From Planctomycetota bacterium (GTDB lineage Bacteria > Planctomycetota > UBA1135 > UBA2386): a stretch of 64,000 bases of DNA. The stretch's first letter is position 1. The number at the start of each line of letters is the position of its first letter. This document shows, piece after piece, positions 5,332 through 33,371 of the stretch. Both the position numbers and the translations under genes were made by a program. The notes beneath the pieces were generated by a model that had not been told where the DNA came from, ran no database searches, and saw nothing but the letters and a program-made list of their open reading frames with translations. The stretch spans positions 249,652 through 313,651 of the forward strand of contig JADJPQ010000009.1 in NCBI GenBank assembly GCA_016713175.1. Direction: 5' to 3'.

Positions 5332-6801
5332 GTGTCGATCCTGGACTGCGCGGCTCCGGCGCCGGATCCTTCCGCGACCCCTCTCCGGTCCGGCGCTCCC
5401 AGCCAGACCCTGTTCAGCCCTTCCGGTCGCGTGCTCAACTCCCTGGTCGACGGTGCCCAGTTCGACCTGACCAACACGCCGCTCGGCATCGCCGCGCTGA
5501 TCGTGTTCGTCGGGGCCTATTTGTTGGTCGTGCTCGAAGAGCGCATCAAGCTCCGGAAGTCGAAGCCGGTGCTGCTCGGGGCCGCGATCCTGTGGATCCT
5601 GACCTCGATCGGCCTGCAGCAGCAGCCGAACGTCACCGGCGAACTGATCGAACAGAGGGTCAGCCACTACATCGCCGAGTACGGCGCACTGTTCCTCTTC
5701 CTGATGGTGGCGATGACCTACATCTCCGCCATCGCTGCGCACAATGTGTTCTTGAAGCTGAACGCGTGGCTGGTGGCCTCCGGCTATGGCTACCGCGCGG
5801 TGTTCTGGGCCACGGGCATCCTGGCGTTCTGGATCTCGCCGGTCGCCGACAACATGACCACTGCACTGCTGATGGGTGCGGTCGTCGTCGCCGTCGGCAA
5901 GGGCGACATGCGCTTCATCGCGCCGAGCTGCTGCAGCATCGTGATCGCCGCGAATGCCGGCGGCGCGTTCTCGCCGTTCGGTGACATCACGACCCTGATG
6001 GTGTGGGCCGAGGACAAGGTGCACACGGCCGAGTTCCTCAAACTGCTGCCGGCGTGCATCGTCAACTGGCTGGTGCCGGCCGCGATCATGCACTTCTGGA
6101 TCCCTGACGAGAAACCCAAGCCACTGCAACATGAAGTCCAGCTGAAGAAGGGCTGGGCCGTCGTCATCGGCCTGTTCCTGGCGACGATCGTCACCGCCGT
6201 GCTCTTCCACATGTACCTGCACCTGCCGCCGGCGCTCGGCATGACGATGGGGCTGGGCTACTACTTCATCTACGGCTGGCTGAGCATCCGCGCCTACCAC
6301 AAGAAGCGCATTGCCGAACCGCTCGACGTGTTCAAGAACGTTGCCGAGGTCGAGTGGGACACGATGTTGTTCTTCTTCGGCGTGATCTTGTGTGTCGGTG
6401 CGCTGCGCGAACTGGGCTTCCTGGCGCTCGCCAGCCATGCGCTCTACGACCCGGTGTCAGGCGTGGGCGCGACCTGGGCCAACATCGGGATGGGGGTGCT
6501 ATCGGCGGTGGTCGACAACGTGCCGCTGATGTTCGCGGTGCTCAGCATGAATCCGCCGATGGACCCGGCGATGCCAGCGGACGTCACGCACACAGCGACC
6601 TCGGTCTACCAGTGGCTGCTGATCACGCTGACCTGCGGCACCGGCGGCTCCTTGCTATCGGTCGGATCGGCCGCGGGTGTTGCCTTGATGGGCAGTGCCC
6701 ACGGAATGTACACGTTCGTCAGCCACTTGAAGTGGCTGCCGGCGATCGCTGCCGGGTATGCCGCCAGCATCCTGGTGCACTGGCTGCTGAATGCGGCATA
6801 A
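5332..6801 (+). CDS. nhaD: Na+/H+ antiporter, NhaD family (copy 2)
   Basis: Same motif set (SPVADNMTTALL, ANAGGAFSPFGDITTLMVW, VDNVP, GGSLLSVGSAAG); start uncertain. Confidence 0.92.
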   Translation: MSILDCAAPAPDPSATPLRSGAPSQTLFSPSGRVLNSLVDGAQFDLTNTPLGIAALIVFVGAYLLVVLEERIKLRKSKPVLLGAAILWILTSIGLQQQPNVTGELIEQRVSHYIAEYGALFLFLMVAMTYISAIAAHNVFLKLNAWLVASGYGYRAVFWATGILAFWISPVADNMTTALLMGAVVVAVGKGDMRFIAPSCCSIVIAANAGGAFSPFGDITTLMVWAEDKVHTAEFLKLLPACIVNWLVPAAIMHFWIPDEKPKPLQHEVQLKKGWAVVIGLFLATIVTAVLFHMYLHLPPALGMTMGLGYYFIYGWLSIRAYHKKRIAEPLDVFKNVAEVEWDTMLFFFGVILCVGALRELGFLALASHALYDPVSGVGATWANIGMGVLSAVVDNVPLMFAVLSMNPPMDPAMPADVTHTATSVYQWLLITLTCGTGGSLLSVGSAAGVALMGSAHGMYTFVSHLKWLPAIAAGYAASILVHWLLNAA

Positions 6802-6876
6802 CGCCTCACTTCGCGCCTGACTGTCGGTCGATAGGTCACCCGGCTGCGCCAACCGGCGCATCGACGAGGGAGACCA

Positions 6877-8235
6877 GTGTTCGGATTCTTCTACGACATG
6901 ATGGCGGTGGCCGGCTCGCCGCACGCGTGGTTCGCGGTGGGCGTGTTCGCCGTCGCGTATCTGCTGGTGGTGCTCGAGGACAAGATCCACCTGCGCAAGA
7001 GCAAGCCGGTGCTGGCGGCCGCGGGCGTCATCTGGGTGCTGGTCGCCTACGCCTTCCGGCACGTGCCCGACGTCGACGAGCACTACCTCGAGGACCGGCT
7101 GCTCGGACATGTCGGTGAGTACGGCGCGCTGTTCCTGTTCCTGATGGTGGCGATGGCCTACCTGTCGGCGATCAGCAAGCACAACGTGTTCCTGCGGTTG
7201 AACGCGGTGCTGATCTCCGCCGGCTTCGGCATGCGAACGCTGTACTGGACGCTCGGCGGCCTGGCGTTCTTCATCTCGCCGATCTGCGACAACATGACGA
7301 CCGCGCTGCTGATGGGATCGGTCGCGATCGCCGTCAGCCAGGGCAACAAACGCTTCGTCGCTGTTTGCTGCAGTAGCATCGTCGTCGCTGCCAACGCCGG
7401 CGGCGTGTTCTCGCCGTTCGGCGACATCACGTCGCTGATGGTCTGGCAGGCTGGCAAGGTCGACACCGGACACTTCCTGAAGCTGTTCGTGCCGAGCCTG
7501 GTGAACTGGTTGGTGCCAGCCATCGTGATGAGCTTCACCGTGCCGAAGGACAAACCGGCGCCGTTGTCGGAACGGGTGTCGCTGAAGCCTGGCTGGTGGG
7601 TCGTGTGCAGTCTGTTCCTGGCAACGATCGGCACCGCGGTGTTCTTCTACCACTCCTTGCACCTGCCGCCGTTCCTCGGCATGACGTCGGGACTGGCCTA
7701 CTACTTCGTCTACGCCTACGTCCGCAACTGGAACCACAAGCACAAGCAGCTCGGCGAACCGCTGGATGTGTTCGCCGACGTCGCCACCGTCGAGTGGGAT
7801 GCGATGCTGTTCTTCTTCGGCGTGATGATGTGTGTCGGCGGTCTGACCGAGCTCGGGGTGATGGCGAAGCTGTCGGGCTGGCTGTACTCGGACCAGGTCG
7901 GGCCGTTCTATGCCAACGTCGGCATCGGCGTCGCGTCGGCGTTGATCGACAACGTGTCGTTGATGTTCGCGGTGCTCAACATGGACCCGAACATGGGCAC
8001 CGGCGAGCGTGGTCAGTACTACTGGGAACTGCTGACCCTGACTGCTGGTACCGGCGGTTCGCTGCTGTCGATCGGCAGTGCCGCCGGCGTCAGCCTGATG
8101 GGCCTCAGCAAAGGCAGGTTCACCTTCGGCGATCACCTGCGCTGGTTCCCGGCGATCCTCGCGGGGTTCTGCGCCAGCGTGATCGTACACTGGTGGCTCA
8201 ACTCGCCACCCTCGCTGCCCGGCGGCGCGCAGTAG
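6877..8235 (+). CDS. nhaD: Na+/H+ antiporter, NhaD family (copy 3, most divergent)
   Basis: SPICDNMTTALL, ANAGGVFSPFGDITSLMVW, IDNVS, GGSLLSIGSAAG; RBS GAGGGAG before GTG. Confidence 0.9.
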   Translation: MFGFFYDMMAVAGSPHAWFAVGVFAVAYLLVVLEDKIHLRKSKPVLAAAGVIWVLVAYAFRHVPDVDEHYLEDRLLGHVGEYGALFLFLMVAMAYLSAISKHNVFLRLNAVLISAGFGMRTLYWTLGGLAFFISPICDNMTTALLMGSVAIAVSQGNKRFVAVCCSSIVVAANAGGVFSPFGDITSLMVWQAGKVDTGHFLKLFVPSLVNWLVPAIVMSFTVPKDKPAPLSERVSLKPGWWVVCSLFLATIGTAVFFYHSLHLPPFLGMTSGLAYYFVYAYVRNWNHKHKQLGEPLDVFADVATVEWDAMLFFFGVMMCVGGLTELGVMAKLSGWLYSDQVGPFYANVGIGVASALIDNVSLMFAVLNMDPNMGTGERGQYYWELLTLTAGTGGSLLSIGSAAGVSLMGLSKGRFTFGDHLRWFPAILAGFCASVIVHWWLNSPPSLPGGAQ

Positions 8236-19542: not shown

Positions 19543-19827
19543 GCATCGTGGCGTGTTCGAGACATCGCTCCAAGTCGTTGTGTCGCGGACGCGAGCGACG
19601 ACGCTTCGGTGCGACTTCGCGATCGTCGGTGGAGGAGCTGCGCAAACTTGTTCGCGGTCTCTTGGCAAGTCGCTCCGCCATCGTTAAGAGACGAGACCTC
19701 ACGAGGAGCTCCGAGTCGGCCGCCTAACCGATTCGAAGACGTGTCGTCAGCCCAGCCCCTTCGACCGCGACCGACGCTCTGCGCCCGAGGTCTGTACCGG
19801 TCGAGAACCCTTACCGGTCCTCTGTCC

Positions 19828-21381
19828 ATGCCCGATGCCCAAGTTCCCGACCCGGTCGTCGCCACCGATCGGGTGCTGCTGCAAGCCGTGTTGCAGCAGA
19901 TCCTTGCCCGCGTTCGTCGCGAGCAGTTCGAGACCTGGTTCCGATCGATGACCCTGGTCCGTGGCGACGATCGGGAGATCGAACTGTCGGTCACCAGCCA
20001 GTTCGTTCGCGACTGGCTGCACAAGAACTTCCTCGCCACGCTGCAGGAGTCGGTGGTTGCCGCGGTCGGCAAGCGCCGCGTCGTGCTGAGTCTGCGCGAA
20101 GAAGATGGGGTGGACAACCTGGCCCTGGTCGAACTGCCGAGTCTCGGCAGCGAGGCCGCCAAGATCGTCGAGAGTGCCCGGCCGCGGACGCCAACGGATC
20201 GCGGCTCGGATCGCCCAGCGGATCACCCAGCAGGTCGAACGGGCGGGCGCGTCGAGTCGGACCGTCCGGCCTCGCTGGATCGTTCGGTGCCAGCATCAGC
20301 CCTCCCGGCGCACGGACCGCTGTCGAGCTCCAGGCGCCTGCAGCCGTCGCAGCTGAACCCGAACTACACGTTCGACAAGTTCGTGGTCGGTCCATGCAAC
20401 CGTCTGGCGCACGCCTCCGCGCTGGCGATCGGTGAGAACCCCGGTTGTGCCTACAACCCGTTGTTCATCCATGGCAACGTCGGCCTCGGCAAGACCCACC
20501 TGTTGCAGGCGATCTGCCACACGGTCATGCGCCGCGATCCGACCGCGCGGGTGCTCTATCTGAGCTGCGAGGACTTCACCAACGCGTTCATCCACGCGAT
20601 CCAGAACGGCGGTCTCGACGAGTTCCGTGCACTGTATCGCAACGTCGATGTGCTGGTGGTCGACGACATCCAGTTCCTGGCGCAGAAGGAGAAGACGCAG
20701 GACGAGTTCTTCCACACCTTCAACACGCTCTACGACGGGCAACGGCAGATCGTCATCTCGTCGGATCGCCCGCCGATCGAGATTCCGACCGTCGAAGAAC
20801 GGTTGGTGTCGCGCTTCAAGTGGGGCCTGGTCGCCGAGATCGAGGCGCCGTGTCTGGATACCCGGGCAGCGATCGTCCGTCGCAAGGCGAAGGGGCGTGG
20901 TGCCGACATCGGCGACGATGTCGCGCTGTTCATCGCCGAACGGATCACCGCCAACATCCGCGAACTCGAAGGCGCAGTCATCAAAGTCGTCGGTGTCGCG
21001 TCGATCACCGATCGACCGATCACGCGGCAACTCGCCGAGGAAGCCCTGCGCGGCGTTGCCCTGCATCGCCATGCCCAGATCTCGGTCGATGATGTGATCA
21101 CGCTGATCACCGGCGAATTCGCGATCTCGGCCCGCGACCTGACCGGCAAGAGCCGCACGCAAGCCGTTTCGTTGCCAAGGCAGATCGCCATGTATCTGAT
21201 CCGCCAGCACACCGAACTGTCCCTCGAGGACGTCGGTCGCTTCTTCGGCAACCGCGATCACACGACCGTGCTCTACGCCGTCACCAAGATCGGCGAACGG
21301 GCAACCAAGGACCGGATGTTCCACGAACTGCTGTCCGGCCTGAGTTCGCGCCTGGTCACGCGTTCGTTCCGGCAGAATTAG
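19828..21381 (+). CDS. dnaA: Chromosomal replication initiator DnaA
   Basis: NPNYTFDKFVVG..NRLA, YNPLFIHGNVGLGKTHLL, DDIQFL, ELEGA, RQIAMYL, RDHTTVLYA; start chosen at ATG 19828. Confidence 0.97.
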   Translation: MPDAQVPDPVVATDRVLLQAVLQQILARVRREQFETWFRSMTLVRGDDREIELSVTSQFVRDWLHKNFLATLQESVVAAVGKRRVVLSLREEDGVDNLALVELPSLGSEAAKIVESARPRTPTDRGSDRPADHPAGRTGGRVESDRPASLDRSVPASALPAHGPLSSSRRLQPSQLNPNYTFDKFVVGPCNRLAHASALAIGENPGCAYNPLFIHGNVGLGKTHLLQAICHTVMRRDPTARVLYLSCEDFTNAFIHAIQNGGLDEFRALYRNVDVLVVDDIQFLAQKEKTQDEFFHTFNTLYDGQRQIVISSDRPPIEIPTVEERLVSRFKWGLVAEIEAPCLDTRAAIVRRKAKGRGADIGDDVALFIAERITANIRELEGAVIKVVGVASITDRPITRQLAEEALRGVALHRHAQISVDDVITLITGEFAISARDLTGKSRTQAVSLPRQIAMYLIRQHTELSLEDVGRFFGNRDHTTVLYAVTKIGERATKDRMFHELLSGLSSRLVTRSFRQN

Positions 21382-21877
21382 CCGTTCCGGCTGACGCCCG
21401 GCCGCGCGGCGCGGTGTGCCGGGGAAGAGGGTATCGGCGACGCTGAGTCTTCTCGGCCTTCCGGATGTTCATGCCACTCCGATCTTTTGACGTGGGTTGC
21501 TGGTCTCGCTGCCGACCAACCACATGTTGGGCCGGCAATCGTCACGACTCCTGTCAGCAGTCATGGGGCAGGCGGCGGGGAAGCGGCGAGGATCTCTGGA
21601 TGCGGTTCCCCGTGCTGGGAGTAGCCTCGGGCGATCGCTCCTTCCGGGGAAGTCCTGGGGACAGATCCGCGATGTTTTTCGCCGCCTTTCCCCGAGTACC
21701 CGAAACCGCAGCGCAGCGCGCAGCCAGGCTGTTTGGACGTCGAACTCGATGGGTCGAACGGGTAGCCTTCCACACTCGCGACGCCACGGATGGCTTGGAC
21801 GAAGAGATGTACTCTCCAAGTCCTGAATCACCGTGTCGGTCAGCCTCCGTGCCCACTCTCACGTTCACCGCCGCCCG
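21382..21877. other. Probable replication origin (oriC) region
   Basis: About 500-bp non-coding dnaA-dnaN spacer with 5 TTCCCCG copies on both strands, variants TTCCACA and GTCCCCA, and dyads; no canonical TTATCCACA. Confidence 0.55.
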
Positions 21878-22975
21878 ATGAAGATCCTCTGCGACCGCAC
21901 CCAGCTCCAGGAAGCCGTCGGCGTCGTCAGCTCGGTGGTCCCGACCAAGTCTCCCAAGCCGATCCTGCACAACCTGCTGCTGCGGGTCGATGACGAGGGC
22001 ATCACCTTGTTCGCAACCGACCTCGAGATGGCGGCCAAGACGCGCCTGGATGCCGTCAAGGTCAGCCGCAAGGGCTTGTTGCTGTTGCCGGCGCGCGAAG
22101 CTTCAGCGCTGTTGCGCGAGCTGTCCGACCCGACCGTGACGATGGACAGCACGGATCAGCGCTGCCGGATCGAGAGCGGTGGCGGCTCGTTCGTGCTGCT
22201 TGGCGAGGACCCGAGCCAGTTCCCCGAAGAGATCAAGCTGGTCAGCAACAAGCGGGTCGAACTGCCCGCGGGTCGGCTGCTCCGGATGATCCAGGAATCG
22301 GCATTCGCGGCGGCGCGCGAGGAGACCCGCTACGCGATCAACGGCGTGCTGTTCGATCTGGCCGCTGGTTGCCTGCGCCTGGTTGCAACCGACGGCCGTC
22401 GGTTGGCCCTGAGCTACCAGAACATCGATGCCGCCCAGGCCGAGTTCAAGGTGGTGGTGCCGCTGCGGGCGCTGACGACGCTGTCGCGCGCGATCCCGGA
22501 GGGCAGCAAGGATCCGCTGCAGATCGCCGTCGGCGACAAGCAGATCGAGTTCACGTTCGGCAAGACGCAGCTGATCAGCCAGTTGCTCGAGTGCCGGTTC
22601 CCCGACTACGAGGGCGTCGTGCCCAAGGCGGCGGACACCTCCGTCGAGATCCAGAAAGCCGTGCTGGAGAGCGCGCTGCGCAAGACTGCGATCCTGTGTT
22701 CGGATGACCTGCGGATGGTGAAGTTCGAGGTTGGCGACCAGGCACTGCGGATCACCGCCGAGAGTTCGGCCCGCGGCCGCGCCGACGTCAGCGTCGACGT
22801 CAACGTCAAGGGCGCCGGCGGATCGATCAACTTCAACCCGGACTACATCCTGGAAGCGCTGCGCGTCTGCCAACTCGACCAGGTGCGCCTGGACATGTCG
22901 GACGATTCGATGCCGGCGAAGTTCACGCTCGGCGAGTCGTTCACCTATGTCGTGATGCCGATCAGTGGAACCTGA
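21878..22975 (+). CDS. dnaN: DNA polymerase III beta sliding clamp
   Basis: ATDLE, RYAINGVLF, VATDGRRLA, FPDYE, FNPDYILEAL, YVVMPI. Confidence 0.96.
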   Translation: MKILCDRTQLQEAVGVVSSVVPTKSPKPILHNLLLRVDDEGITLFATDLEMAAKTRLDAVKVSRKGLLLLPAREASALLRELSDPTVTMDSTDQRCRIESGGGSFVLLGEDPSQFPEEIKLVSNKRVELPAGRLLRMIQESAFAAAREETRYAINGVLFDLAAGCLRLVATDGRRLALSYQNIDAAQAEFKVVVPLRALTTLSRAIPEGSKDPLQIAVGDKQIEFTFGKTQLISQLLECRFPDYEGVVPKAADTSVEIQKAVLESALRKTAILCSDDLRMVKFEVGDQALRITAESSARGRADVSVDVNVKGAGGSINFNPDYILEALRVCQLDQVRLDMSDDSMPAKFTLGESFTYVVMPISGT

Positions 22976-23005
22976 GGTGGGGGAACCTGAGGTGGGGCAC
23001 CTGAA

Positions 23006-23009
<4 letters not shown>
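22967..23009 (+). repeat. Three tandem 14-15 bp repeats GG(A/C)ACCTGA(G/A)GTGG
   Basis: Units at 22967-22980, 22982-22995 and 22996-23009, spanning the dnaN stop and the next start codon. Confidence 0.85.
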
Positions 23010-25802
<2,793 letters not shown>

Positions 25803-25838: not shown

Positions 25839-27311
25839 ATGCATCGCATCCGCTACCTCGTCGGCTTGTTGACGCTGGCTCTGGCCGTGGGCGGCACCTG
25901 GGTGCTGCTGTGCTGGTTGCGGGCCGGCGAAGAACGGCCCGGTCTGCAGCTGCGGGTCGAGTTCCGCGATGCGCGCGGGTTGCGTGGCGGCGCCGATGTC
26001 CGTTATCGCGGGGTCACGGTCGGCACGGTGCGATCGGTGCAGATCGGCGAGGACGGCCACAAGGCGGTCGCCAACCTGGTGCTGGATCCGATCGGCGCGC
26101 GCCAGGCCGCGGTCAACAGCGCGTTCTGGATCGTGTCGCCGCGCTTTGCCGGGTTGACTGGCGGTGCGAGCGGCCTCGATACGCTGGTGCGCGACACCTA
26201 CGTCGCGTTCGTGACCCAGGACCCGCGTGGCACCGAACTGGTGCACGGCAGCCTGATCGCCGGCAGCGAACGACCGCCGGCGAACGTCGAACCGGAGAGC
26301 CTCGAGCCGATCGAGCATGGCGACCTGCTGATGAGCGTGCTGGTGCCGGAGAACCACGGCCTGAAGCCGGGGTCGGCGGTGATCTTCCGCGGCACCCAGA
26401 CCGGCGACGTGCGCGCGGTCGAACTCGCCAGCGATGGCAGCCATGTGCAGGTCCGGCTGCGCGTCGCGCGCCGCTTCCGTGCCACGGTCACCGACAAGTC
26501 GGTGTTCTGGATCGCCCGGCCTCACCTGTCCGGGGCGCTGTTCTCCGGCTTCACCGTCAGCGATGTCGGCTCGCTGTTGTCGCCGTTCGTCAACTACTGG
26601 ACGGAACCTGGGCAGGGTCTGCCCGCCGAAGATGGCCTGCGTGTCGCTGCGGTGGCGTCGCGGCCGGAGGTGCGGATCCCGGAAGTTCCGGCGGCGGCGT
26701 TGCAATCGGCGCAGCCGGCGCCGGCAGTCCGTGGTGACCCCCTGGTCCTGGTGCGGGTCATCTACGCCGCCCAGGAGGAAGACACCTTCAGCGCCAACGA
26801 CGCGATCCGCCGCGAGGGCACCGGAGTGTTGTTCCTCGACGCCTCCGGGCGTCCGGTGGTGGTGACGGCGCGCAGCCTGGTCGATGGCGCCTGGACCGAG
26901 GAGGACACGTTCGGCGGCGATCCCGAGATCATCGACGAACACATCAAGGTCGTCGTGCCGCAAGGACCGGTGCTGCGCGCCGGCCGGGTGTGGACCGCGC
27001 CGGGCGACCGCGACCTCGCAGCCTTGGTGCTGGAAGACGCGCCGCCCGATCTGCGCAGCACACCGGCGAATCTGCTCGACTTCGCGATCGAACCGACGGC
27101 CGGCCACGTGCATGCGCTGCAGCCGGATGGCCTGGCAGCACCGGCGCAGGAGGCCACAGCACCGCCAGCGGACGTGGCGGCCGTTCGCGGCGCCGCGCTG
27201 GTGCACGATGGCCGCGTTGGCGCGATCTGTGGTCAGGCCAGTGGCCGTGACGCGACTCCGGCCTGGGCACCGCTGGCGTTGCTGCCGGTCGACCTACGCC
27301 CGGGGAACTGA
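25839..27311 (+). CDS. MlaD/MCE family protein: N-terminal TM, two MCE domains, C-terminal trypsin-like domain lacking catalytic residues
   Basis: FRDARGLRGGADVRYRGVTVGTV and GLKPGSAVIFRGTQTGDV; FWI motif in both repeats; C-terminus GTGV..VVTARSL..DLAALVL..GRVGAI. Confidence 0.8.
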   Translation: MHRIRYLVGLLTLALAVGGTWVLLCWLRAGEERPGLQLRVEFRDARGLRGGADVRYRGVTVGTVRSVQIGEDGHKAVANLVLDPIGARQAAVNSAFWIVSPRFAGLTGGASGLDTLVRDTYVAFVTQDPRGTELVHGSLIAGSERPPANVEPESLEPIEHGDLLMSVLVPENHGLKPGSAVIFRGTQTGDVRAVELASDGSHVQVRLRVARRFRATVTDKSVFWIARPHLSGALFSGFTVSDVGSLLSPFVNYWTEPGQGLPAEDGLRVAAVASRPEVRIPEVPAAALQSAQPAPAVRGDPLVLVRVIYAAQEEDTFSANDAIRREGTGVLFLDASGRPVVVTARSLVDGAWTEEDTFGGDPEIIDEHIKVVVPQGPVLRAGRVWTAPGDRDLAALVLEDAPPDLRSTPANLLDFAIEPTAGHVHALQPDGLAAPAQEATAPPADVAAVRGAALVHDGRVGAICGQASGRDATPAWAPLALLPVDLRPGN

Positions 27312-27312
27312 C

Positions 27313-28845
27313 GTGACGGCTGCCGTGGTGCCGACCGGGTCCGGCTTGCCGCCGTTCTGGGCCTTCGAGCAGTTCTCGCTCGCGCATCGCCGGGCGGACA
27401 GCGAGGAAGTGCTGCTGGCGAACGTCCCGCTGTCGGTGCCGGCCGGCGGGTTCTTCCTGTTCGTCGGTCCAAGTGGCGGCGGCAAGTCGTCGCTGCTGCG
27501 CCTGTGCGCCGGTCTGGTCGAAGCGCGCGAGCCGGCACCACGATTGGGTGGCGGATTCCGCTGCCTCGGCCTCGATCTGTGTGCCGACTATCCGGCAGAG
27601 CTGCACGGCAGGGTCGCTGCGATCCTGCAGGACGAAGGGTTGCTCGACGAACTGTCGCCGCGCCAGAACGTCGAACTGGCGCTGCGCGCCGCCCAACGTT
27701 CGCCGAAGTTGGCACCCGGCCTGCTGGCCCAGGTCGGCCTCGAGCATGCACCGGAACGGGTGGCCCAATTGTCCGGCGGCATGCGCAAACGCCTGGCTGT
27801 CGCCCGGGCGCTCGCCGCGGACCCTGAAGTGATGCTATGTGACGAACCGACCGCCGGCCTCGATCCCGAGGCCGCGCGTCAGGTGGCGGCGCTGCTCCAG
27901 CAGAGCCACGACGGCGGTCGCGGTCGGACCACGGTGATCATCACGCACGATCAGGCGGCGTTCGATGGGCTCGTCGACGGCATCCTGGTGCTCGATCGCG
28001 GCAATCGCACATTGCGCCTGGAGCCGCCGACGTTCCGCTGGCAGCCGGACGGCGGACGGGCTCGCGCACCGGAGGCACAGGAAGGCGAGGGGCCGGCACT
28101 GCATGGCCTGCGCCGGCAACTGTTGCGGCTGGCGTCGGTGCTGGAGACCGTCGTCGAGTCCCTGGTGCGGCTGCCACCGGTGGAACCGGGTCAGGTGGCC
28201 AGGACGACCCTGCGTCTGCTGACCGAGTCGATCGCGTTCATCGCCGTCGCCGGCGGTGTGATCGGCGGCATGGCGACGTTCTTCGCGCTGCGCAACAACC
28301 CGATCCAGGGTGGCTTCGAGACGGCGCTGCTGACCGGCACCGGCAAGGTGCTGACTGCGGTACTGGTGCCGCTGCTCAGTGGGTTCTTCTTCACCGCGCG
28401 GATCGCCGCCGGCGCCGCGGCCAGGTTGGGCACGATGAAGCGCAACAACCAGATTGCCGCGCTGCAGATGATGGGCATCCGCCCGGCGGACTACCTGCTG
28501 ACGCCGCTGATCTGGGGCATGGTGCTGGCCATGCCATTGGTGACCCTGGCCGGTGTCGTCGCGTCCGCGTTCGCCGGGCTGTTCGCGGCCCAGGGAGTGT
28601 CGGGGATCACGACAATCGGCTGGGCCACGGCGTGGTTCCAGGCCGTCGACCTGCGTGATGTCGAGATCGTCGCGCTGAAGTCGGCGCTGTCGGGCTATCT
28701 GGTCGCAGTGACCACGTGGCATCTGGCGACCGGTCCCAAGCGTTCCGGCGGCGAAGTCGGGGAAGCGGTCAATGCCGCGATCGTGATCGGCATGGCGGCG
28801 GTGCTGGCGGTGCACGCCGGGTTGACGTTCCTGGTCTACGCCTGA
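27313..28845 (+). CDS. MlaF-like ABC ATPase fused to an MlaE-like permease
   Basis: GPSGGGKS, LSGGMRKR, CDEPTAGLDP, ITHD, then TM region with RLGTMKRNNQIAALQMMGIRPADYL (MlaE EAA-like) and GEAVNAAIV, all in one frame. Confidence 0.85.
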   Translation: MTAAVVPTGSGLPPFWAFEQFSLAHRRADSEEVLLANVPLSVPAGGFFLFVGPSGGGKSSLLRLCAGLVEAREPAPRLGGGFRCLGLDLCADYPAELHGRVAAILQDEGLLDELSPRQNVELALRAAQRSPKLAPGLLAQVGLEHAPERVAQLSGGMRKRLAVARALAADPEVMLCDEPTAGLDPEAARQVAALLQQSHDGGRGRTTVIITHDQAAFDGLVDGILVLDRGNRTLRLEPPTFRWQPDGGRARAPEAQEGEGPALHGLRRQLLRLASVLETVVESLVRLPPVEPGQVARTTLRLLTESIAFIAVAGGVIGGMATFFALRNNPIQGGFETALLTGTGKVLTAVLVPLLSGFFFTARIAAGAAARLGTMKRNNQIAALQMMGIRPADYLLTPLIWGMVLAMPLVTLAGVVASAFAGLFAAQGVSGITTIGWATAWFQAVDLRDVEIVALKSALSGYLVAVTTWHLATGPKRSGGEVGEAVNAAIVIGMAAVLAVHAGLTFLVYA

Positions 28846-28885
28846 GGGCGCTGCTGCGGCGGCATCGGTGGTTCGTTCAAGCCGG

Positions 28886-29566
28886 ATGCAGCGTCGAACC
28901 GATGATCGAGCCGTGAAGGGCCTCGACAAGCTGACTTCGGTGCGCCTCGCGGAAGTCCTCACCCAGAAGGGTGTGGTGCCGGCCGAGGTGATCACCGATG
29001 CGCTGTACGCGCAGGACAAGAACGGCGAACCCTTCGTGCAGGTGCTGATCGGCGGCGGTCACATCACCGAGTGGGATCTCGCCAAGCTGGTCACCGAGAA
29101 CTTCCAGCTGCCGTTCCTGATGGCCGGCAACTACCAGATCTCGGAAGCCGCGCGCGACCGGCTGCCCAAGGAGCTGCTGTTCCGCCACATGCTGGTGCCG
29201 CTGGATGCGATCGACAACGTCGTCTGCGTGTCGATGCCGGTGCTGACGCCGTTCGAAGTGCTGATGAAGATCCAGAAGGAGCACAATTGCGATGTGTTCC
29301 CCTATGTCGGCCTGATCACCGAGAACAAGAAGGTCTTGTCCGACCTGTTCAAGGACTTCCCGCAGTGGTTGGAGGACGACCAGAAGCGACGTGAGGCGGG
29401 TGCGGCGAAGCGGGCGACCCAGAAGGACAGCAAGGACAAGGTCGGCGACTGGATGAGCGTGTTCGACGCCGGCGACCAGGCGATCAAGGACCGACCCTCC
29501 GTGCGCAAGCCGGTGACGCCCCCACCGACGTCCAGCACGGCCCTGCCGCCGAAGAAGCCGGGCTGA
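28886..29566 (+). CDS. Stand-alone MshEN/T2SSE-N domain protein
   Basis: RLAEVLTQKGVV...ITDALYAQ, then FVQVLI..GHITEWDLAKLV; no ATPase domain; start ATG 28886 or GTG 28913. Confidence 0.65.
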   Translation: MQRRTDDRAVKGLDKLTSVRLAEVLTQKGVVPAEVITDALYAQDKNGEPFVQVLIGGGHITEWDLAKLVTENFQLPFLMAGNYQISEAARDRLPKELLFRHMLVPLDAIDNVVCVSMPVLTPFEVLMKIQKEHNCDVFPYVGLITENKKVLSDLFKDFPQWLEDDQKRREAGAAKRATQKDSKDKVGDWMSVFDAGDQAIKDRPSVRKPVTPPPTSSTALPPKKPG

Positions 29567-32345: not shown

Positions 32346-33371
32346 ATGCGCATCCCTCTCGCAGTCCTGCTGGCTGCAACCGTCGCCTCGGTTGCCAGCG
32401 CGCAGGACAAGGTCACGTTGTCCAACGGTGACGTGGTGACCGGCGCCATCAAGACGATGGCCGATGGCAAGTTGACGATCTCGTCGCCGCTGGTCGGCGA
32501 CATCACCATCCCGCTGGCCAACATCGCCAATCTGTCGACCGGCGCCCCGGTCGACCTGCTCAACACCGACGGTGAACGGTTCAAGCGCCGCATCGCCGGT
32601 ATCGAAGGCGGTGACCTGAAGCTCGAAGGCGACATCCCGAGCCTGGCACTGTCGCGGCTGGGCCAGATCAATCCCCCCGCGAAGGTGCCGGAGAGCTGGA
32701 CCGGATCACTGACCGCCGGTGGTTGGATCACCAGTGGCAACACCGAGCGTCGCGCCATCGGCCTCGCGTTCGAGGCTGTACGCCGATCCGAGATCGACCG
32801 TATCACCGCCGATGCGTCGTGGGACTACTCCGAGGACAAGGCGACCGGTGACTGGGTGCTGAACCAGCGCCGCGCCGGCGGTGGCCTCAAGTACGACTAC
32901 TTCCTGACCAAGAAGTGGTACCTGATCGCGACCGCGCGCGTGCTCGGCGACACGCTGGCGAACATCAACCTCCGGTTCACCGGCGGTTTCGGCCTCGGCT
33001 ACCAGTGGGTCGAGAACGACACGACCAACTTCTCGACGGAAGCCGGTCTGTCGTACTTCAACGAGAACTACCGCCGGGATCCGGTCCTCAACGTTGCCGA
33101 TCCGAGCGTCGACTACCTCGCGGCTCGGGTGGCCTACAAATTGAGCCACAAGCTCAGCGACACGACGAAGCTGCTGCACGGCACCGAGGCGTTCCCGAGT
33201 CTGGAAGACGCCAACGACGTCTACTTCCAGATGAAGACCGAAGTGCAGACCAACTTGACCGCGAGCATGATCGCTTCGCTGGGCTGGGTCTGGGACTACG
33301 ACAACACGCCGGCGACGGGTCGCGATCGTTCCGACCATCGCGTGTTGCTGGCGGTCGGCTGGACGTTCTGA
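32346..33371 (+). CDS. DUF481/YdiY-like outer-membrane beta-barrel protein
   Basis: Signal peptide; L.NGD.VTG N-domain; SGNTE; alternating beta strands ending VGWTF. Confidence 0.8.
   Translation: MRIPLAVLLAATVASVASAQDKVTLSNGDVVTGAIKTMADGKLTISSPLVGDITIPLANIANLSTGAPVDLLNTDGERFKRRIAGIEGGDLKLEGDIPSLALSRLGQINPPAKVPESWTGSLTAGGWITSGNTERRAIGLAFEAVRRSEIDRITADASWDYSEDKATGDWVLNQRRAGGGLKYDYFLTKKWYLIATARVLGDTLANINLRFTGGFGLGYQWVENDTTNFSTEAGLSYFNENYRRDPVLNVADPSVDYLAARVAYKLSHKLSDTTKLLHGTEAFPSLEDANDVYFQMKTEVQTNLTASMIASLGWVWDYDNTPATGRDRSDHRVLLAVGWTF

Follow-up and report, generated by a model that had tools for sequence, protein, structure and literature searches.

A two-ring MCE protein of Planctomycetota carrying an HtrA-like C-terminal domain without the catalytic His and Ser

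Why a subunit of a putative lipid transporter should end in a domain resembling a serine protease is the question raised by one gene of an uncultured Planctomycetota bacterium. The gene lies in a 64,000-nucleotide stretch of assembly GCA_016713175.1 (contig JADJPQ010000009.1, positions 249,652 to 313,651, forward strand), hereafter called the window and numbered from its first letter, and encodes a protein of 490 amino acids (aa) that we call P0001. MCE systems (Mla, Pqi, Let, Mce1-4, and TGD) are the main candidates for lipid movement between diderm membranes, and the central open question is how each of them reaches the outer membrane or hands over to it. To our knowledge, the solutions studied structurally all rely on a shuttle that is soluble (MlaC), on rings that stack (LetB), on a helical needle (PqiB, Mce1), or, by a proposal made for Veillonella, on a membrane barrel at the C terminus. 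We propose, with a probability of roughly 55%, that P0001 forms a two-ring MCE channel and carries, on a tether at its periplasmic end, a pseudoprotease derived from HtrA, which would serve in binding, docking, or assembly.

Architecture of P0001 and fold of its C-terminal domain

P0001 consists of an N-terminal transmembrane helix, two MlaD/MCE domains, a variable linker of ~25 residues, and a C-terminal domain of ~190 residues. These parts are encoded as follows.

25839 to 27311, + strand: coding sequence of P0001, the MCE-MCE-pseudoHtrA protein, 490 aa (open reading frame list and translation; full-length homologues)
25839 to 25928, + strand: putative signal-anchor transmembrane helix, residues 1-30, with MHRIR cytoplasmic (AlphaFold2 (AF2) helix 2-30; hydrophobic stretch LVGLLTLALAVGGTWVLLCWL)
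25941 to 26273, + strand: MCE domain 1, residues ~35-145 (Pfam MlaD 35-123; LetB/PqiB sequence and fold matches; invariant columns)
26316 to 26663, + strand: MCE domain 2, residues ~160-275 (second MlaD match at 167-233; LetB alignment spanning 32-240)
26664 to 26735, + strand: variable Pro/Ala-rich linker, residues 276-299 (low predicted local distance difference test score (pLDDT); poor conservation)
26736 to 27308, + strand: HtrA-fold pseudoprotease domain, residues 300-490 (AF2, Foldseek, sequence profiles)

The open reading frame (ORF) starts with ATG and stops with TGA (27309-27311). Many ORFs in the window are spurious because its G+C content is ~66%. For P0001, more than 256 homologues of ~490 aa were found in public data, and these are conserved along their full length, with identities of 55-99% among the 120 listed and alignments reaching down to ~30% identity in more distant representatives. 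As judged from this conservation, the ORF is a genuine gene. Where the homologues are named, they are Planctomycetota proteins called "MlaD/MCE family protein" or "hypothetical protein"; a single record is labeled just "bacterium".

The Pfam model MlaD (PF02470) matched P0001 twice (80.4 bits, cut-off 25.1), and in a search of the genome the matches, each above the cut-off, spanned residues 35-124 and 167-233. The closest solved structures by sequence were LetB (E 4.8e-29) and PqiB, and the first fold matches of the full-length AF2 model were LetB and PqiB (E 1.5e-17), MlaD, and Mce1. Domain 1 carries the conserved putative pore-loop segment PRFxGLxxGxxGLDTLVRD (residues 101-119); the conserved loops at 101-119 and 232-238 are compatible with a role as candidate pore loops. 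The helix modeled at residues 2-30 (pLDDT 88-95) occupies the position of the membrane anchor in MlaD, PqiB, and LetB. Under the positive-inside rule, this helix and the MHRIR that precedes its hydrophobic segment suggest an N-terminal anchor with MCE domains facing the periplasm. In the linker, pLDDT falls below 50 at residues 281-298, and little is conserved besides R275, P276, V283, P284, and A287. An earlier note made from the letters of this DNA had described a transmembrane anchor and two MCE rings, and the AF2 helix and the two Pfam MlaD matches bear out the anchor and the pair of MCE domains.

Residues 300-490 were modeled as an all-beta domain with pLDDT of 83-95 even within the full-length protein, and the model of residues 298-490 alone reached a pLDDT of 96.6 and a predicted template modeling score (pTM) of 0.92. 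When the isolated domain was compared with the PDB by Foldseek, the top 50 matches were all HtrA or trypsin-like proteases, the proteins being DegS, DegP, DegQ, Deg1, HtrA1, and the trypsin-like domain of IgA1 protease. The E values started at 3.5e-5, the probability was 1.00, and the template modeling score (TM-score) was 0.5-0.6 over ~200 columns, which is the entire domain. The earlier note had regarded the last ~200 residues as trypsin/HtrA-like and had proposed a check of their fold; AF2 and Foldseek give the chymotrypsin/HtrA double beta-barrel. The motifs that it quoted were all found, namely GTGV at 327-330, VVTARSL at 341-347, DLAALVL at 392-398, and VRGAALVHDGRVGAICG at 449-465.

Sequence profiles pointed in the same direction. 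Alignment A3 comprises residues 298-490 of 40 diverse relatives, and the hidden Markov model built from it was compared with all PDB sequences. The results showed that 36 of 37 matches were HtrA proteases (E 0.004 to 1), aligned at "irV.l.dG..l.A..v..d..DLAvL", the strand bearing the catalytic Asp. When the 40 members were scanned singly against Pfam, 16 matched Trypsin_2 (PF13365) at E <1 (best E 4.4e-6), and no other Pfam family recurred among them; the relative P0163 covered the complete Trypsin_2 profile at 22.6 bits (cut-off 27.6). Five bona fide HtrA protease domains extracted from the same genome were aligned as a comparison set, and hhalign matched A3 to them with a probability of 78% and an E value of 2e-6 over 181 columns. 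The A3 profile also detected HtrA-like genes of other Planctomycetota genomes at E ~1e-6; four were inspected, one of them with the triad intact and the others with degenerate motifs. The agreement of AF2, Foldseek, the PDB profile, and the Trypsin_2 matches in relatives confirmed that the resemblance to trypsin/HtrA is well beyond chance, and the domain, as modeled, very probably has the HtrA fold. No PDZ domain was found in P0001 by Pfam, and the chain ends with the final element of the protease fold. The C terminus holds an invariant P-x-DLRP, which was considered as a tail that might dock into a neighboring cleft. This idea was rejected, and the tail was read as structural, because it is modeled with pLDDT >90 and packed on its own domain; its position is presumably that of the C-terminal helix of the chymotrypsin fold.

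Loss of the catalytic residues and distribution of the family

Three codons mark the positions of the ancestral catalytic residues.

26874 to 26876, + strand: Ser346 codon, at the catalytic-His position (by-eye match of TARSLVDG to TNHHVVDG of L006, an HtrA of the same genome)
27012 to 27014, + strand: Asp392 codon, equivalent of the catalytic Asp, retained (aligned to DvAvL/DLAvL of Deg1, DegQ, and the HtrA of the same genome)
27186 to 27188, + strand: Arg450 codon, at the catalytic-Ser position of GNSGG (hhalign pairs aVRGAALV with GNSGGPLV)

In the hhalign alignment, DLAAL of the domain is paired with DLALL, which contains the catalytic Asp (D392), and aVRGAALV-DGRVGAI is paired with GNSGGPLVDADGRVLGV, placing R450 on the nucleophilic Ser. 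The assignment of Ser346 to the catalytic His rests on a by-eye match and on its position in the secondary structure because hhalign leaves a gap there. VVVTARSLVDG corresponds residue for residue to LALTNHHVVDG of L006, and the TARSLVDG segment forms a short helix following a strand in the AF2 model, which we take to be the place of His57 in the chymotrypsin fold; together, the match and the helix place S346 on the catalytic His. The reading in the earlier note thus held at all three sites: a His replaced by Ser (Ser346), a catalytic Asp context in DLAALVL (Asp392, retained in that strand), and a missing Ser of GNSGGP (where Arg450 stands).

The catalytic columns were counted in 76 aligned relatives. 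At the His column, Ser is present in 67, the rest having Ala, Thr, or Cys, with one Arg and one Pro; His occurs in none. At the Ser column, the residue is Arg, Leu, Glu, Gly, Val, His, or Met, and Ser occurs in none. Asp is retained at the position of Asp392 in 73 of the 76. Both the catalytic His and the catalytic Ser are thus gone from these relatives, and family-wide the domain is dead as a serine protease of the classical kind. No ancestral MCE fusion with an intact triad was present among the 76, which extend down to ~30% identity.

The conservation that remains is unevenly spread. The N-terminal barrel is more conserved than the C-terminal barrel (mean column entropy 1.89 versus 2.62 bits), and the near-invariant residues of the domain are V305, Y309, D315, D321, G329, R345, D349, E367, W385, D392-L393, P483, and R487. 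Near the ancestral cleft, R345 is kept in 74, S346 in 67, D349 in 75, E367 in 75, and D392 in 73 of the 76 relatives. Within the otherwise variable oxyanion-hole/Ser loop, G451 is kept in the close clade.

The family is confined to a few lineages. Among 185,579 species genomes scanned, 71 hold a relative, nearly all of them labeled Planctomycetota, and in an even sample of this phylum the domain was carried by 6 of 201 genomes, belonging to three families (f1, f21, and f26). Among 1.84 billion representative proteins, the domain occurred almost exclusively in the ~490-aa architecture or its fragments. Three repeat proteins recovered in the representative search through 6-9 short stretches each (P0156, P0170, and P0176) were rejected as unrelated, not homologous, because summed short matches inflate the score, as indicated by the sequence of P0156 and the Pfam assignments of all three.

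The two-gene module and its genomic context

The gene for P0001 is followed on the same strand by two further genes.

27313 to 28845, + strand: fused MlaF-MlaE protein (ATP-binding cassette (ABC) ATPase plus permease), 510 aa (Pfam ABC_tran 35-181, MlaE 302-506)
28868 to 29566, + strand: third gene, 232 aa, with a weak MshEN-like match (Pfam MshEN E 1.3e-4, below the cut-off)

The MlaF-MlaE ORF begins with GTG one base past the stop codon of the MCE gene, and a MlaFE fusion lies directly downstream of the MCE gene in 61 of the 64 relatives with enough flanking sequence. In distant members from two other families, this fusion is the sole neighbor kept beside the MCE gene, which defines the functional unit as a two-gene module. 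Three families of uncultured Planctomycetota share this pair of MCE-pseudoHtrA and MlaFE genes.

The third gene follows MlaFE in 54 of 59 close relatives and was not seen adjoining MlaFE in the distant member L032, where a MurJ gene follows instead. Its product has no transmembrane helix by eye and a sub-threshold MshEN/T2SSE_N-like match, and it is possibly a cytoplasmic accessory or regulatory subunit, MlaB-like in position. In L032 (positions 5716-7992, − strand, genome G081), murJ, the lipid II flippase gene, stands directly after the MCE-pseudoHtrA and MlaFE pair, and the neighborhood of the module is one of envelope biogenesis, not the origin region.

Upstream of the module in the window lie dnaA, dnaN, and gyrB (19609-25802, + strand), next to the probable replication origin, and gyrB precedes the module in most relatives. 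A functional meaning of the gyrB/dnaA adjacency was considered and rejected, since it is conserved just in the close clade and lost in the distant L032 and L033; as these keep MlaFE alone, the adjacency was attributed to inherited synteny. In relatives, a 100-aa DciA gene lies between dnaN and gyrB (L018, 5191-5493), and the window ORF at 23006-23317 (103 aa) is probably its counterpart. A DUF481 gene (Pfam; 32346-33371, + strand) lies ~3.5 kb downstream of the module, and it has the same relative position in both close relatives examined (L018 and L020).

The genome assembly (7.95 Mb, 90% complete) contains four MCE genes, each adjoining a MlaE gene. Outside the window, the three further systems, each with a single-MCE protein bearing a long helical tail and a much more canonical MlaE, lie at the following positions.

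C2, 29777 to 32677: MCE system
C26, 269904 to 272858: MCE system
C8, 379457 to 381216: MCE system

Among the four MlaE proteins, that of the P0001 module diverges by far the most (106 bits versus 217-245 bits). In each of the other three MCE proteins, one MCE domain precedes a long helical C-terminal region, and two of their genes are directly followed by PF03886 (ABC_trans_aux, PqiC-like), one match being strong and one weak. The operon of P0001 has no PF03886 PqiC-like gene. Hence, where the other systems have helical tails with or without PqiC-like genes, the P0001 system lacks both and has a dead HtrA domain instead, and this genomic context fits, as circumstantial evidence, the suggestion of the earlier note that the domain may stand in for MlaC or a PqiC-like partner as a docking module. 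Searches for MlaC and MlaA in the 90%-complete genome gave no match to PF05494 or PF04333, MlaB not having been sought, and PF04403 (PqiA/LetA) likewise had no match in the genome.

The genome also gives 18 Trypsin_2 matches in total, so that its stock of HtrA-like domains is large and could have been the source of a recruited one. One locus (C22:22749-24626, − strand) has three tandem Trypsin_2 domains in a single open frame of 1097 aa. In three other Planctomycetota genomes (G066, G154, and G196), proteins of ~610 aa (L028, L029, and L031) have two tandem trypsin-like domains and, by eye, a PDZ-like tail. Their motifs are degenerate, with LTAATVV or LTSTTVV at the His position and GSDGG, GNAGG, or GNTGG at the Ser position, and by sequence they look like a separate HtrA pseudoprotease family of the phylum.

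Proposed function and comparison with known systems

We propose that P0001 would be the periplasmic subunit of a two-gene ABC lipid transporter of the MCE type. On the pattern of MlaD, PqiB, and LetB, six P0001 chains would be held in the inner membrane by the N-terminal helix, and the two stacked MCE rings would form a short hydrophobic channel conducting lipid above the fused MlaF-MlaE motor, whose ATP hydrolysis would drive the lipid flux. The flexible linker of ~25 residues would tether the HtrA-derived double beta-barrel at the distal end of the channel. With Ser346 and Arg450 standing where the catalytic His and Ser were lost, the barrel cannot act as a classical serine protease. It may work as a non-catalytic module that docks the transporter to an envelope partner or oligomerizes into a cap, and it would thereby fill the role of the long helical tails and PqiC-like lipoproteins in the other MCE systems of the genome. 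A specific docking role is put forward tentatively, at somewhat less than even odds. A bolder version, in which tethered pseudoproteases are an unrecognized route that completes the MCE path to the outer membrane, seems unlikely. In that route, the six dead HtrA domains, perhaps arranged as two trimers or one ring, would hold on to a protein of the outer membrane or cell wall, or to a lipoprotein, through what is left of the peptide-binding cleft and through the conserved R345/D349/E367/D392 surface; the flux driven by MlaFE would be coupled to the protein so bound, and neither MlaC nor MlaA, nor a PqiC-like lipoprotein, nor an extension in the form of a beta-barrel would be needed.

Several observations weigh against the proposal. 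P0001 itself matched no Pfam protease model in the Pfam scans, Trypsin_2 included, and the domain is therefore a divergent offshoot rather than a member by Pfam criteria; the TM-scores against HtrA structures are moderate, with a root-mean-square deviation of 5-7 Å; hhalign has a gap across the His region; and all 71 carriers are uncultured metagenome-assembled genomes. HtrA domains are normally trimeric, with no obvious fit to a six-fold MCE ring, and the strict conservation of R345, S346, D349, E367, and D392 could suggest a new chemistry or a ligand site, not docking. If the HtrA-like fold were a prediction artefact and the region an unrelated beta-rich domain, the lack of a significant Pfam protease match, the weak E values of the PDB profile (0.004 to 1), and TM-scores of just 0.5-0.6 would fit. 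However, four independent lines agree on the fold (AF2 with Foldseek, 36 of 37 in the PDB profile, 16 of 40 for Trypsin_2, and hhalign), and the alignment to the HtrA domains of the same genome shows motif-for-motif correspondence, which makes an artefact very improbable. The conserved residues at and near the ancestral cleft (S346, R345, D349, E367, and D392) could also belong to a rewired enzyme, for example one using Ser346 as a nucleophile with Asp349 or Asp392 and processing a lipid, lipoprotein, or peptide at the exit of the channel. This is improbable, since no His or other general base stands at the canonical position, the oxyanion-hole/Ser loop varies outside the close-clade G451, S346 is swapped for Ala, Thr, or Cys in some members, and no similarity to non-classical hydrolases was found by PDB profile, Pfam, or Foldseek.

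A purely architectural role is a more serious contender, although we consider it rather unlikely. The dead domain would then be an oligomerization module or spacer that stabilizes the hexamer or lengthens its periplasmic reach, with no specific partner or lipid. The conserved positions cluster in the N-terminal barrel, the part that forms the trimer contacts in HtrA proteases, the former substrate/Ser-loop region is variable, and the other MCE proteins of the genome bear long helical extensions instead. Plant Deg7 and yeast Nma111 offer a parallel, with degenerate protease domains that have such an architectural role. On the other hand, the poorly conserved linker with pLDDT <50 argues against rigid stacking, the clustering of charged residues that hardly vary (R345, D349, E367, and D392) around the former active site exceeds the usual needs of packing, and the three-fold symmetry of HtrA is no simple match to a six-fold ring. 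A tethered module for binding, docking, or assembly is our preferred reading.

If this reading is true, a protease-fold domain at the end of the channel would be a solution different from the shuttle, the rings, the needle, and the Veillonella barrel discussed below, and it would be a clear bacterial case of a serine-protease scaffold recruited non-catalytically in envelope biogenesis. The envelope of Planctomycetota is atypical and has been little studied in terms of its biogenesis. The compact two-gene module should suit expression for cryo-electron microscopy.

No published description of an MCE protein combined with a trypsin, HtrA, or pseudoprotease domain was found by full-text searches of the literature. 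The view in the earlier note that known MCE architectures lack such a domain agrees with these searches and with the database annotations (PF02470 alone), an agreement that amounts to absence of evidence only. Compared with LetB (YebT) and PqiB of Escherichia coli (PDB 6V0C, 9N8W, and 5UVN), P0001 shares the transmembrane anchor and tandem MCE domains but has two of the latter, whereas PqiB has three and LetB has seven. Unlike this group, it has no C-terminal helical needle, it is paired with a MlaF-MlaE ABC fusion in place of PqiA/LetA, and it carries an HtrA-fold domain that is present in neither LetB nor PqiB; its score for the PqiB equivalog (NF008070) was 67.1 bits, far below the cut-off of 525. 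With MlaFEDB of Proteobacteria (PDB 6XBD, 7CH8, and 6Z5U), the module has in common an MCE subunit adjoining a MlaE-type permease and a MlaF-type ATPase, and MlaD structures were recovered by the fold search with P0001. The differences are that MlaF and MlaE form one polypeptide in the P0001 module and that P0001 carries a pair of MCE domains without a helical tail or C-terminal helix bundle, whereas MlaD has a single MCE domain and a C-terminal helix; the score for the MlaD equivalog (TIGR04430) was 40.7 bits, below the cut-off of 135. By analogy, the P0001 system would work like a Mla-type ABC/MCE transporter and look like a short PqiB/LetB.

With HtrA, DegS, DegP, and DegQ (MEROPS S1C; PDB 1SOT, 3MH5, 3PV3, and 3QO6), the domain shares the double beta-barrel and the catalytic Asp, and the motif frames GxG...T-x-x-[H]-V-V-D-G, D-L-A-x-L, and G-x-x-G-G-x-L...G-I are recognizable in it. 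It differs in having Ser346 for His, Arg450 or a variable residue for Ser, and no PDZ domain, and in being fused behind MCE domains rather than soluble. Deg7 and Nma111 likewise retain HtrA-fold domains minus the catalytic residues for non-catalytic roles such as oligomerization, and there the protease is soluble and the degenerate domains adjoin an HtrA domain that is active. In P0001, by contrast, the dead domain is the sole HtrA domain and would be part of a membrane lipid transporter. A parallel in position is the long MlaD of Veillonella parvula, which has a long helix and a 10-strand C-terminal outer-membrane beta-barrel; by way of this extension the protein is proposed to span to the outer membrane with neither MlaC nor MlaA, and the same study reported the barrel absent from PVC-group MlaD sequences and mentioned no protease-like domain (PMC10665443). 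The C-terminal extension of the MCE protein is a membrane beta-barrel in V. parvula MlaD and a soluble protease-fold domain in P0001.

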